Shown here: positions 1 through 29,781 of the stretch, one piece after another
Layout: every line of letters starts with the position of its first letter
How positions within the stretch are numbered: position 1 is the first letter of the stretch
Origin: a virus
UHGV virus genome: UHGV-0132373
Reading direction: 5' to 3' (one strand)
Length of the DNA: 29,781 nucleotides
The notes under the pieces: model-generated
Seen by the model: the letters and a program-made list of their open reading frames with translations, nothing else
Databases searched by the model: none
Told to the model about the DNA's origin: nothing
Made by a program: the position numbers and the translations under genes

Positions 1-120
1 GGAATGGCATCAGACATCAGTCCGATTAGCAGGGCTTTTAAGTATGCGCTTGATGAAATCACAAAGAAAAAATCCCCGGTGGCCGCCGAGGATTTTAAGC
101 AAATTGATATGCAATTCTGA
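1..120 (+). CDS. 3' end of a CII/C1-like transcriptional activator gene (5' end cut by window edge)
   Basis: Frame 1 is open from the window edge to TGA at 118-120. The tail ...ITKKKSPVAAEDFKQIDMQF resembles the C-terminus of lambda CII as I recall it (...KKRPAATERSEQIQMEF). It sits just upstream of the O-like gene, as in lambdoid phages. Confidence 0.5.
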   Translation, partial: GMASDISPISRAFKYALDEITKKKSPVAAEDFKQIDMQF

Positions 121-152
121 GGGAATTACTGGATCAATCCACAGGAGTAATT

Positions 153-314
153 ATGACAAAACGTCGTAAGAAATACCAGGAAAAAGAAGAGATTCGACAC
201 CCTGATTCACCTGAGGGATTAGTGGTAGCCGCAGCAAATAACAGGGCGTTCGCAGAGCGCCTTGTTGGTGTTTACAGACTAGCCAAAGCAGGAGTGAAAC
301 ATGGGCGTCGTTAA
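153..314 (+). CDS. small basic hypothetical protein (53 aa)
   Basis: ATG at 153 preceded by AGGAG (ACAGGAGTAATT-ATG); TAA at 312-314 overlaps the start of the O-like gene. Below the 60-aa cutoff of the ORF track. No recognisable domain. Confidence 0.35.
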   Translation: MTKRRKKYQEKEEIRHPDSPEGLVVAAANNRAFAERLVGVYRLAKAGVKHGRR

Positions 315-1122
315 GTTAGCTGATTACAGGCCTCAACTTGAGGTCGTGGAGCATCGCGTGGCAGATACCGAAGATGGTTTCATGCGCGTTGCTAACGAGA
401 TTACCGACAGTCTGCTGATGGCTGATTTAACCGTCCGGCAGTTGAAGGTGATGCTCGCTATCATGCGCAAGACATACGGATTCAATAAGCCGATGGATCG
501 ACTCACAAACACGCAGATAGCAGCCATGACAGGTATTCATCACACTCATGTTTGCGCTGCCAAGCGCCAGCTTATCGAGCGTAAATTCCTCATTGCTGAT
601 GGCGTGAAAATCGGAGTGAACAAGGTGGTTTCTCAGTGGATTAGCCAGGACAGCTTAACATTAGCTAAAACAGCTAATAAAACATTAGCCAAGTCGGCTA
701 ATGGGTATAAGCCAAGTCAGCTAAACACAAAAGACAATATACAAAAGACAATAAATACAAATACCCCCTTACCCCCTAACGGGGGTGGCGATGGGCAGGT
801 TAAACCTGAACGTCGCAAGGCAGAACGAATCGACTACGAATCCTTCCTGAACGCCTACAACACCGAAGTCGGTGACAGACTGCCACACGCTGTTGCGGTC
901 AACGAGAAACGCAAACGCCGCCTGAAGAAAATCATCCCGCAACTGAAAACGCCAAACGTGGACGGTTTCAGAGCGTATGTCAGGGCGTTTGTGCATCAGG
1001 CCAAGCCGTTTTACTTCGGAGACAACGACACGGGCTGGACAGCTGATTTTGATTACCTGCTGAGGGAAGATTCGTTAACGGGAGTACGGGAAGGGAAGTT
1101 TGCAGACAGGGGGATTGCATGA
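301..1122 (+). CDS. replication initiation protein, lambda O / P22 gp18-like
   Basis: 273-aa ORF whose N-terminal region (…[37 protein letters not shown]…) matches the lambdoid O-type initiator DNA-binding domain. Internal iteron/AT-rich origin (641-790). Stop overlaps the helicase start (ATGA at 1119-1122). Confidence 0.85.
641..790. repeat. putative origin of replication: about four imperfect 20-24 bp direct repeats (iterons), an A/T-rich tract, then a G/C-rich inverted element
   Basis: TTAGCCAGGACAGCTTAACA / TTAGCTAAAACAGCTAATAAAACA / TTAGCCAAGTCGGCTAATGGGTATA / AGCCAAGTCAGCTAAACACAAAAG (641-733), then A/T-rich ACAATATACAAAAGACAATAAATACAAATA (734-765), then CCCCCTTACCCCCTAACGGGGGTGG (766-790). 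Lambda-type ori architecture inside the initiator gene. Confidence 0.7.
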
Positions 1123-2495
1123 GACAGGATATCGAAGCGAGCGTTATCGGTGGCCTGCTGATTGGTGGATTAACACCAACCGCCAGCGACGTTCTGGCAA
1201 CGCTGGAGCCGGAAGCGTTTTCAATTCCGCTCTACCGGAAAGCCTTCGAGGTTATCCGCAAGCAGGCGAGAAACAGAAACCTAATCGATGCGCTGATGGT
1301 TGCCGAGGCGTGCGGAGAGGAGCATTTCACGTCAATCCTGATGACCAGCAAAAACTGCCCGAGTGCCGCAAACCTGAAGGGATATGCTGGAATGGTCGCG
1401 GATAACTATCACCGCCGTCTGGTGCTGGAAATCATGGATGAAATGCGTGAACCAATTCAGAGCGGAACCATCGACGCATCGAGTCAGGCGATGGATGAAC
1501 TTGTAAAGCGTCTTTCAGCCATCAGAAAGCCACGTGACGAGGTTAAACCTGTACGGTTAGGGGAAATCATCACCGACTACACTGACACGCTTGACAGGCG
1601 TCTGAGGAACGGAGAAGAGTCCGATACCCTGAAGACCGGAATCGAAGAACTTGATGCCATCACCGGAGGGATGAACGCGGAAGACCTTGTGATAATCGCT
1701 GCTCGTCCTGGTATGGGGAAAACCGAACTGGCGCTGAAGATTGCCGAAGGCGTTGCAAGCCGCGTTATTCCTGGTTCTGACGTCCGGCGCGGAGTGTTGA
1801 TTTTCTCGATGGAAATGAGCGCATTGCAGATTGCAGAGCGAAGCATTGCCAACGCCGGGAGGATGCCGGTTAGCGTGCTGCGAAATCCTGCTTCGATGGA
1901 TGACGAAGGCTGGGCGCGCGTTGCTAACGGCATGAGTCAGCTTGCAGATTTGGATGTATGGGTAGTCGATGCCTCGCGGTTATCGGTCGAAGAAATACGC
2001 TCAATCGCAGAACGGCACAAACAGGAAAATCCAAACCTCTCACTCATCATGGCGGATTATCTTGGCCTGATTGAGAAGCCGAAAGCAGATCGCAACGACC
2101 TCGCAATTGCTCACATCTCCGGAAGCCTGAAGGCGATGGCGAAAGACCTGAAAACGCCAGTAATCTCCCTGAGTCAGCTTTCGCGCGATGTTGAGAAGCG
2201 ACCAAATAAACGCCCGACAAACGCAGATTTGCGTGATTCAGGAAGCATTGAACAGGACGCAGACTCAATCATCATGCTCTATCGGGAGGCGGTATATGAC
2301 GAGAACAGTAGCGCCGCGCCATTTGCTGAAATCATCGTGACGAAAAACCGTTTTGGCTCGCTTGGTACGGTTTACCAGCGGTTCTGCAACGGACACTTTG
2401 TTGCATGTGACCAGGATGAAGCCAGACAGATTTGCACAACATCAAATGCACCTGCTGCGCGTGGCAGACGATATGCACAAGGGGCTGACGTATGA
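1119..2495 (+). CDS. DnaB-family replicative DNA helicase (P22 gene 12-like)
   Basis: 458 aa with Walker A motif [16 protein letters not shown] and DnaB-like C-terminal domain features (…[41 protein letters not shown]…). Translationally coupled to the O-like gene. Confidence 0.9.
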
Positions 2496-2521
2496 CCATC
2501 TACATCACTGAGCTAATAACA

Positions 2522-29072: not shown

Positions 29073-29148
29073 CATCATATATAATTATTTTAATGTTAAT
29101 ACCGTCTTCTTGTTGGCGGCTTATTTGTGAAAATCGAATGAGTTATTT

Positions 29149-29451
29149 ATGATGAATATAGAAGTTGATATAACACCAATTCTTCACGCACTTTGCGCTG
29201 TTGTCGCACAAGTTCTGGTTGGTCTTTTTACCGGAAACTGGGCTTACGGTGCGATAGCCGGTTGTACGTTCTTCATTGCGCGTGAACACACCCAGGCAGA
29301 ATATCGCTGGATAGAAAAGTTTGGGAAAGGGAAACGTATCAACATGCCGTGGTGGGGAGGTTTTGATCCACGCGTGTGGGATGTGGGAAGTTTGTTGGAT
29401 TTTTCTTTCCCAATTATCGGATGCTTATTGGTATGGATTCTTGCATCGTAG
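29149..29451 (+). CDS. small hydrophobic protein, probable integral membrane protein (accessory/moron position)
   Basis: 100 aa with hydrophobic stretches (ILHALCAVVAQVLVGLFTGNWAYGAIAGCTFFIA; FSFPIIGCLLVWILAS) and a Trp-rich loop (MPWWGGFDPRVWD); located right after the tailspike. Confidence 0.5.
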   Translation: MMNIEVDITPILHALCAVVAQVLVGLFTGNWAYGAIAGCTFFIAREHTQAEYRWIEKFGKGKRINMPWWGGFDPRVWDVGSLLDFSFPIIGCLLVWILAS

Positions 29452-29537
29452 CGAACACATAATTACCGATGAAACAAAACTGAGACACACAAAGCTTTGC
29501 ACTGGATTGCAAGGCTTTGTGATCTTCGATAGTGGTT

Positions 29538-29562
29538 AAGGTGGATCACTCCACCTTTTCAT
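29538..29562 (+). terminator. terminator-like hairpin
   Basis: AAGGTGGA-tcac-TCCACC followed by TTTTCATC, about 90 nt after the small membrane ORF. Confidence 0.35.
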
Positions 29563-29781
29563 CAAGCCAATCCGCCCACCACTGCATCATTTCTCTGCGC
29601 TTAACGTAGTTGATGCATCACTATCACCCTGTAATGGCTTATTACTGGTTTGCAGACAGGTAGGCATGAACATATGCCTGCGCATGAAGATGGAACTAGT
29701 CCGGATGCGATATTTTTGGTGATCACGCACATCATCAACGAAGTGCGTTATGGTGAGTTTGATGACTACCCGCTGAAGTGA

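Follow-up and report, generated by a model that had tools for sequence, protein, structure and literature searches.

UHGV virus genome UHGV-0132373, a stretch of 29,781 nucleotides (nt; hereafter the window, meaning the whole of the DNA analysed), appears to be the early-right and late part of an apparently intact, temperate P22-like (Lederbergvirus-type) prophage, put together as a recombinant patchwork from the gene pool of the lambdoid phages. We put the probability of this reading at roughly 0.9. What is new in the prophage is how known modules are combined; it does not represent a new kind of element. Along the window the best-matching reference phage switches abruptly, and each cassette has a relative of at least 86-100% nucleotide identity in some known phage.

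The entire window is 100% identical to positions 631627-661407 of the complete circular chromosome of Escherichia coli SFAD3 (NZ_CP176645.1), a human-gut strain whose source is human stool, St. Louis (megablast with the first 25 kb: 631627-656626). According to the RefSeq annotation, a P22-like prophage of about 41 kb lies here between sbcB and dacD and encloses the whole window. It runs from the integrase through the early-left genes, cI/cro/cII, replication, nin, Q, lysis, packaging, head, needle, ejection and immI genes to the tailspike. The window is its right three-quarters; it starts at the end of cII and stops about 330 bp past the small open reading frame (ORF) downstream of the tailspike. 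The virion-assembly genes follow the Lederbergvirus order 3-2-1-8-5-(orf)-4-10-26-14-7-20-16 ... 9, and their homologues are full length. Such an element could also be a decaying, defective remnant whose patchwork arose from deletions and insertions after domestication, and two annotated pseudogenes in the left arm, outside the window, together with a remnant of an int gene inside it, would fit that history. However, the replication, lysis, packaging, head, tail and ejection genes in the window are all full length against their homologues, no insertion sequence (IS) elements or frameshifts were seen in it, and the regulatory sites (PR', tR', Pant/Pmnt, both operators and sar) are intact. We consider a decayed remnant unlikely.

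Genes were compared by tblastn, and DNA by blastn high-scoring segment pairs (HSPs) and 100-bp identity tiling, with lambda, P22, HK620, Sf6, CUS-3, HK97 and epsilon34 and later with Kapi1, part of phiv142-3, ST104 and Louie (eleven references); the abrupt switches are seen in all three comparisons. The share of window bases matched at ≥88% identity is 64.7% for CUS-3, 52.0% for Kapi1, 29.7% for Sf6, 29.2% for Louie, 28.2% for HK620, 22.4% for epsilon34, 22.1% for HK97, 10.8% for ST104, 8.5% for P22, 6.3% for lambda and 6.3% for phiv142-3, of which only an 8-kb fragment was compared. Greedy tiling with nine references covers 90% of the window and leaves 2,885 nt untiled at this threshold. No phage record covers ≥80% of the window, and of the 5,426 complete E. 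coli genomes searched just two reach that coverage, SFAD3 itself and UPEC_U013 (80% of the window at 95.5%). The accessory ORFs tested all belong to an existing PHROG, except an unannotated minus-strand ORF (6983-7207). A preliminary description of the window had read it as a modular mosaic, proposed a per-module comparison with known phages and named uniform high identity to one phage as the outcome that would speak against a mosaic. That comparison, in which CUS-3 is the best single match, bears the mosaic out. The donors it named (lambda, P22, Sf6 and HK620) are right for some genes, but the largest component, the CUS-3/Kapi1-type head block at 10452-17050, had been overlooked. Its positions for a KilA-N insertion and a cargo operon were correct, with a PF04383 gene and a minus-strand cargo block lying where they had been placed.

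The extent of the CUS-3 and Kapi1 matches would also fit uneven divergence, of fast and slow genes, in one CUS-3/Kapi1-related lineage with no horizontal exchange, and host-contact genes (ejection proteins, tailspike) do vary most (PMC2629481). However, segments that CUS-3 leaves unmatched are 94-100% identical to other phages: the needle tip to Sf6 (about 95-96% nt; 98% of amino acids, aa), the KilA-N cassette to ST104 (94%), arc-ant to epsilon34 (95%), hkcB to HK620 (99% nt in 100-bp tiles; 97% aa) and the tailspike receptor domain to a Uetakevirus (98.8%). Identity shifts within a few bases and not gradually, and the CUS-3 counterparts are other sequence types (small terminase, TerS, 30%; gp14 20%; Arc 44%). 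Divergence within a single lineage is thus a very improbable account.

What is regular about the joints is their position at gene and domain boundaries. Pooled over the eleven references, the HSP ends form 72 breakpoint clusters, 42% of which lie within 30 bp of the start or stop of a coding sequence (CDS), against 13% at random (0 of 5000 simulations reach the observed value), and the median distance from breakpoint to CDS end is 52 bp where 169 bp is expected. Clusters supported by at least four references mostly edge widely shared blocks (NinB, NinE, NinF, S-R, hkbM and the tailspike head-binding domain). The intragenic joints in TerS, the needle, Rz and the tailspike coincide with the points at which the protein alignments diverge, and reading frames are kept. 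In TerS the joint precedes the C-terminal tail, 20 residues that do not vary between Sf6-type and CUS-3-type proteins; this tail adjoins the shared large terminase (TerL) and would contact it. The needle joint follows the conserved N-terminal 75 or so residues. The Rz joint comes after the membrane anchor and upstream of Rz1, and the periplasmic domain stays with the embedded Rz1. In the tailspike the joint (nt 27423-27528, about residues 115-150) separates the head-binding domain from the beta-helix.

Terminators do not explain these positions, although the preliminary description had let module boundaries coincide with them. Four of the five strong plus-strand terminators (tR2-like, tR', the one ahead of the KilA-N cassette, t_coat and t_ant; Table 1) have a breakpoint within 60 bp, which looks significant against random placement in the window (P = 0.027). 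With intergenic sites alone as the control, however, a mean of 3.6 of five is expected and the effect is gone (P = 0.56). Only about 4 of the 72 joints involve a terminator.

We suggest that the patchwork draws on a gene pool shared among lambdoid phages of E. coli, Shigella and Salmonella. Along the genome, conserved blocks that are 90-100% identical across many phages (NinB, NinE, NinF, S-R, hkbM, gp10, the start of gp16 and the tailspike head-binding domain) alternate with variable cassettes (replication, nin, Q, KilA-N, TerS body, head, needle tip, gp14-7-20, gp16, 'ant moron' and tailspike receptor domain). Homologous recombination in the conserved blocks, together with rarer non-homologous joins, would shuffle the cassettes, and selection would retain joins only between genes or protein domains. 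Such selection would also prevent interacting partners from being separated: the tail of TerS from TerL, the periplasmic domain of Rz from Rz1, and the DNA-binding half of Mnt from its operator. That the window is an assembly chimera of co-resident lambdoid prophages in SFAD3 is hardly credible: repeats of the kind that can mis-assemble occur in two places of the SFAD3 record and in up to 12 in other genomes, but the chromosome is complete and circular, gene order is canonical P22-like with essential functions neither duplicated nor missing, junctions keep reading frames and domain boundaries, an attachment-site (att) core flanks the element in sbcB, and sub-combinations recur independently (Sf6-type TerS, CUS-3-type head and knob needle in Kapi1; UPEC_U013 over 80%).

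Several points nonetheless weigh against the recombinant patchwork as we draw it. Breakpoints taken from HSP ends depend on the choice of the eleven references, and about 2.9 kb of the window is not tiled at ≥88% by those used. Some joints lie deep in genes without evident domain logic (scaffold 14655-14815, coat 15781-15824, gp16 22830, ant 26095-26538) and may mark patches of divergence instead of crossovers. Recombination as the mechanism is read from how the joints are distributed, and the apparent viability of the prophage (induction, plaques) is predicted from sequence.

Table 1. Modules, genes and sites in the window. Coordinates are window positions; identities are to the phages named.
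Feature	Position	Strand	Type or support
Replication module: cII 3' end, orf53, O, P (DnaB-type helicase), small ORF 2577-2780	1-2774	+	HK97-type
tR2-like terminator	2521-2545	+	
Small nin-left ORFs 2770-2952, 2961-3182 (DUF7301), 3184-3447, 3450-3614	2775-3600	+	Shiga toxin (Stx)-phage-type and Sf6-type patches
nin region: NinB, Dam-type methyltransferase, NinE, NinX, NinF, 70-aa ORF, DUF1364, RusA, NinH	3595-6302	+	
Antiterminator Q	6299-6880	+	phage-21/Sf6-type; 99% Sf6, 98% CUS-3
Late promoter PR'	6795-6824	+	11/12 consensus positions
Leader terminator tR'	6836-6876	+	hairpin -25.5 kcal/mol, z -4.1
Lysis block: S holin, R transglycosylase, Rz membrane anchor	7164-8306	+	lambda-like; 96.6% nt to lambda
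Rz periplasmic domain, embedded Rz1, 50-aa ORF	8307-8793	+	Sf6/HK97/P22-type
Rz1 lipoprotein, embedded in Rz	8393-8578	+	lipobox LGVSAC in translation
Strong terminator ahead of KilA-N cassette	8805-8824	+	
KilA-N accessory cassette (gene 8977-9507)	8806-9532	+	PF04383, E 7e-18
Conserved linker with DUF2560/hkbM	9533-10013	+	common to all P22-like references
TerS N-terminal part and core	10080-10451	+	diverged Sf6/HK620 type; PF20901 Sf6_terminase, E 1e-44
Head block: TerS C-terminal tail, TerL, portal, scaffold, coat, 62-aa ORF, gp4	10452-17050	+	CUS-3/Kapi1-type
t_coat terminator	16384-16403	+	
gp10 and needle N-terminus	17051-18606	+	block conserved across P22-like phages
Needle coiled coil and C-terminal knob	18607-19329	+	Sf6-type; PF16532, E 1e-116
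gp14 (DUF2824), gp7, gp20	19327-21816	+	Kapi1/Louie-type
gp16 ejection protein	21817-24000	+	CUS-3/epsilon34-type; 99% aa CUS-3, 95% epsilon34, 77% HK620
hkcB-like membrane-anchored coiled-coil protein	24001-24346	-	HK620-type; 97% aa HK620 hkcB, 50% CUS-3 copy
Two-gene cargo cassette	24353-25356	-	CUS-3-type; 99% aa to CUS-3
139-aa YafO-family toxin	24772-24353	-	PF13957, E 7e-12, 45.7 bits (cut-off 25); RefSeq name agrees
199-aa all-alpha protein	25356-24757	-	
immI: mnt, Pmnt/Pant, arc, sar, ant, t_ant	25399-26932	both	
mnt	25647-25399	-	98% CUS-3, 85% P22
Arc operator	25675-25695		exact match
Mnt operator	25705-25721		only difference a flipped central base pair
arc	25738-25899	+	98% to P22 and epsilon34
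sar antisense RNA	25967-25900	-	Rfam RF00262, 95.6 bits (gathering score 43)
ant	25968-26870	+	96% epsilon34, 85% P22
t_ant terminator	26888-26907	+	
Tailspike head-binding domain	27081-27435	+	P22-like family type; PF09008 residues 1-113, E 1e-65
Tailspike receptor-binding part (pectate-lyase-like beta-helix) and 99-aa membrane protein	27528-29451	+	PF12708 residues 152-209
int 3'-end remnant	29498-29606	-	HK620/Sf6/CUS-3-type; 93-98% nt to int 3' ends of HK620, CUS-3, Sf6, Louie

The body of TerS is 88% aa identical to Sf6/HK620 and 30% to CUS-3, shows 75-92% nt identity in 100-bp tiles and has no match in P22 by tblastn, so that its description as Sf6/HK620-like and not P22-like stands. An Sf6-type packaging module, as it had been called, extends only to TerS and TerL. 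The portal is 100% identical to CUS-3 and 56% to Sf6, and the scaffold (89% CUS-3, 29% Sf6), coat (99% CUS-3, no match in Sf6) and gp4 (99% CUS-3, 41% Sf6) are likewise of CUS-3 type, which for portal, scaffold and coat places them in the CUS-3-type procapsid gene subgroup; against P22 the values are 35% for the portal, 29% for the coat and 39% for gp4, with no match for the scaffold. Kapi1 matches 10080-20340 at 95-97% nt in three HSPs (10080-14654 at 96.6%, 14736-20340 at about 95%), with short gaps at 14655-14735 and 15782-15823. A patch of the scaffold gene (14655-14815) is 65-75% identical to CUS-3 between flanks of 97%. It is a hotspot of divergence or else a short stretch that was replaced within the gene.

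Further downstream, gp10 is 92-99% aa identical to all P22-like references, and the first 75 or so residues of the needle are near-identical in five aligned sequences. Over its full length the needle is 98% aa identical to Sf6, whereas the needles of HK620, P22 and CUS-3 align only across the N-terminal half or so (about 50%). The HK620 needle (233 aa) has a P22-type C-terminus without a knob, and the likeness of a knob-bearing needle to Sf6/HK620 thus holds for Sf6 and not for HK620. gp14 is only about 20% aa identical to P22, Sf6, HK620 and CUS-3, yet matches PF11039 (E 9e-64), and is common to Kapi1 and Louie. Here Kapi1 continues at 96% nt as far as 20340, and with 19300-21850 as query Louie matches at 86% and Gally/683R2/HF4s at about 82%. 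The least-matched DNA of the window, 20341-21533, comprises the 3' end of gp7 and the first 360 or so codons of gp20, and no reference tiles it at ≥88%.

The immI region has the P22 layout, with mnt, arc and ant in the divergent Pmnt/Pant arrangement, the operators and sar. The operators were read against what we take to be the Arc and Mnt consensus patterns, and alignment to P22's own control region agrees, identity there being 98% to P22 and epsilon34 alike. A joint falls at the 5' end of mnt, with CUS-3-type DNA to the left and epsilon34/P22-type DNA to the right. The N-terminal half of Mnt, which carries its DNA-binding region, is P22-like (two conservative differences), and the regulation of immI reads as coherent in spite of the joint. 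No structured RNA other than sar was found in the window. The preliminary description had called immI P22-type and Arc, Mnt and Ant near-identical to P22. Layout, operators, sar and Arc (98%) agree with this, but Mnt and Ant are each 85% identical to P22, with closer relatives in CUS-3 (Mnt, 98%) and epsilon34 (Ant, 96%).

Like other Lederbergvirus-type tailspikes, that of the window begins with a P22-type head-binding domain, which is 88-92% nt identical to HK620, Sf6 and CUS-3; its matches among PDB sequences include the N-termini of the Sf6 and P22 tailspikes. From 27528 to 29403 the DNA is 98.8% nt identical to the tail fiber region of phiv142-3 (Uetakevirus, epsilon15-like), a match that runs from the receptor-binding part through its stop codon and the spacer into the following ORF, most of which it covers. 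This looks like a very recent cross-genus exchange with an epsilon15-like phage, with the joint just past the head-binding domain. PHROGs already contain a tailspike family with the corresponding full-length architecture (phrog_20231). The next ORF (29152-29451; phrog_1443) encodes 99 aa with several hydrophobic segments and accompanies the receptor-binding domain in phiv142-3. It occupies the slot of the O-antigen-modifying conversion genes of P22-like phages.

A 13-nt att core, CGTAATCGTGAAA, was found by direct comparison of the ends at both prophage junctions (L001 1664-1676 and 42495-42507) and is located within the 5' coding region of sbcB. At the left junction a substitute sbcB N-terminus, MTDTDKQPTFLFHDYET, is supplied by the phage. 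Together these two features place the prophage in the 5' end of sbcB. Right of the right-hand core, next to dacD, the DNA reads as MMNDGKQQSTFLFHDY, presumably the original, K-12-like sbcB 5' end. Since attR lies outside the window, about 87 bp to the right of its end, all window bases are prophage DNA. The motifs GTGTACCAAA and GCGTACCAAA are repeated near both prophage ends (L001 about 1810-1875 and 42410-42440) and may be integrase arm-type binding sites; a repeat search across the two ends was uninformative, as it compares within each region only. The working int, at the opposite end of the prophage from the int remnant, is 99.6% identical to that of mEp234 and several Stx phages. Its matches also include E. 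coli O157:H7 CB2851 and S. flexneri serotype 7a records, which we take to be phages 2851 and Sf101. Because the remnant, some 100 bp long and downstream of the tailspike, sits at the right end while the working int sits at the other, the integration module appears to have been replaced, an sbcB-type int ousting one of HK620/Sf6/CUS-3 type and leaving its 3' end behind.

The left end of the window (1-2774) is 98.0% nt identical to HK97 (O 100%, P 99% aa) and, from 748 on, 97.2% to CUS-3. Short patches follow, of which 2758-3214 (0.46 kb) is 95-97% identical to Stx-converting phages and 3289-3451 is 100% identical to Sf6. RefSeq annotates no gene at 2496-3183; judged by their families, the ORFs at 2577-2780 (phrog_6308, 4e-51), 2770-2952 (phrog_21123, 5e-40) and 2961-3182 (DUF7301, 2e-31) are probably genes overlooked in annotation.

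The nin region is itself mosaic and mostly of HK97/HK620/Sf6 type, with breakpoints at 3601, 4562, 4729, 5268, 5467 and 6303, each within 6 bp of a CDS end. NinB, described as near-identical to lambda, is indeed 96% aa identical to it (99% to Sf6), and NinE (93%) and NinF (88%) are lambda-like as well. A lambda-type nin module as a whole is not what we find: the Dam-type methyltransferase (99% to Sf6/HK97) has no counterpart in lambda, DUF1364, RusA and NinH are 96-100% identical to HK620/CUS-3/HK97 (NinH 56% to lambda), NinX is a distant member of the P22 family (48% to P22), and lambda's NinC, NinD, NinG and NinI are absent. Downstream, tblastn matched no homologue of Q in lambda or P22, and Sf6 homology stops at 6880. 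The spacer between tR' and the lysis genes (6881-7163) is, among the references, common only to CUS-3, and stands in place of two tRNA genes that Sf6 and Kapi1 carry there; no tRNA genes were found downstream of Q. The minus-strand ORF without a PHROG match (74 aa) falls within this tR'-lysis region.

The holin S and transglycosylase R are of lambda type, as had been described (99% and 98% aa), and tblastn found no homologue of R in P22. Rz, which had also been considered near-identical to lambda, is 59% identical to it overall and 98% to Sf6/HK97. The alignment with the lambda protein diverges past about residue 39, just after the membrane anchor, the nucleotide match stops at 8306, and the remainder is Sf6/HK97-type. 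The Rz/Rz1 spanin pair is not of lambda type. Beyond the lysis genes, the KilA-N cassette is 93.6% nt identical to the Salmonella phages ST104, SE1 and PS119, and its protein just 26% aa identical to the KilA-N proteins of HK620 and HK97. The linker that follows is 93-98% nt identical to P22, HK620, Sf6, CUS-3, epsilon34, Kapi1 and Louie, and 96.5% to HK97 over 9533-9845 only.

Between gene 16 and mnt, where P22 has sieA, the window carries no sieA and three other genes, hkcB and those for proteins of 199 and 139 aa. The translated hkcB product has a hydrophobic helix at its N-terminus, then a coiled coil, and is HK620-type although the adjoining cargo pair is CUS-3-type. In this pair the start of the YafO-family gene overlaps the end of the 199-aa gene by 16 nt. 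The 199-aa protein belongs to a small family whose 16 cluster representatives come from E. coli, Salmonella and Pectobacterium. In Pectobacterium chromosomes (L013-L015, 6001-7004) the pair occurs alone, with no phage around; it has the 16-nt overlap there too and is flanked by a sugar ABC-transporter operon and gcvP. In a phage whose tail genes are different (L016, 1455-2457), a pair of 29% identity comes immediately downstream of mnt. On account of these two settings the pair reads as an autonomous mobile unit with a toxin-antitoxin-like organisation.

The 199-aa protein does not resemble the YafN (Phd/YefM-type) antitoxin. It has no Pfam match, and a PDB sequence search with both cargo proteins gave no match. 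Its structure model is an all-alpha bundle (predicted local distance difference test score, pLDDT, 79); in a fold search the best hits, generic helical bundles and MukF-like proteins with low TM-scores, were no better than E 0.2. PADLOC matches to the cargo genes were all sub-threshold and a defence-system assignment was rejected, and a literature search on YafO in P22-like phages found no paper among those that could be searched. Because no minus-strand terminator is predicted between mnt and hkcB, the cargo is probably co-transcribed with mnt from Pmnt and hence expressed in the lysogen. As a tentative interpretation, the pair could be an uncharacterised toxin-antitoxin or exclusion module, composed of a YafO-family toxin and a new all-alpha partner unrelated to YafN, mobile between Pectobacterium chromosomes and phage immI regions, and placed here at the sieA position. 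It is a candidate prophage-borne toxin or defence cassette and, with the tailspike receptor-binding part, one of the two least-charted items of the window.

Mosaicism is the long-described normal architecture of lambdoid and P22-like phages, and this instance matters little beyond cataloguing. It is a worked example in which joints respect gene and domain boundaries and partners are kept together, in which no parts are more fluid than the 'ant moron' and the tailspike receptor domain, and in which the integration module can be swapped. The epsilon34 genome paper described mosaic nin regions, an exchange of gene 16 between epsilon34 and CUS-3 and hypervariable host-contact genes, and counted ten 'ant moron' types in sixteen P22-like genomes (PMC2629481). 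Ejection proteins are diverse and partly interchangeable (PMC10883804, on SieA).

Among known phages, CUS-3 (K1-specific and P22-like; CP000711) is alike at 89-100% aa in P, in DUF1364-RusA-NinH-Q-S-R-Rz, in TerL, portal, scaffold, coat, gp4, gp10 and gp16, and in the YafO-like pair and Mnt. It differs in the TerS body, needle tip, gp14, gp7/gp20, hkcB (50%), Arc, Ant (56%), the KilA-N cassette, several nin genes and the tailspike receptor domain; its own tailspike is an endosialidase, and its own int, of HK620/Sf6 type, is present in the window only as a remnant. Kapi1 (vB_EcoP_Kapi1, MT813197) shares the combination of Sf6-type TerS, CUS-3-type head, knob needle and variant gp14, and differs in gp20, gp16, the ant-moron region, tailspike, Q, NinB and the KilA-N cassette, as well as in having tRNA genes. 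Sf6 (NC_005344) is alike in the TerS family, TerL, the knob needle, NinB, the methyltransferase, the 21-type Q with PR'/tR', S, R and Rz. It differs in portal, scaffold, coat, gp4, replication genes, gp14, gp20, gp16 and tailspike domain, lacks immI and has two tRNA genes after tR', where the window has none. P22 and epsilon34 share the mnt-Pmnt/Pant-arc-sar-ant layout with Arc and Mnt operators, and gp16 is 95% identical to that of epsilon34; P22 differs in having sieA in place of hkcB and the YafO-like pair, in Mnt and Ant, and in its head genes (29-39%). Lambda is alike in S and R, and differs in Rz, in an unrelated Q and in matching only 6.3% of the window at ≥88% nt.

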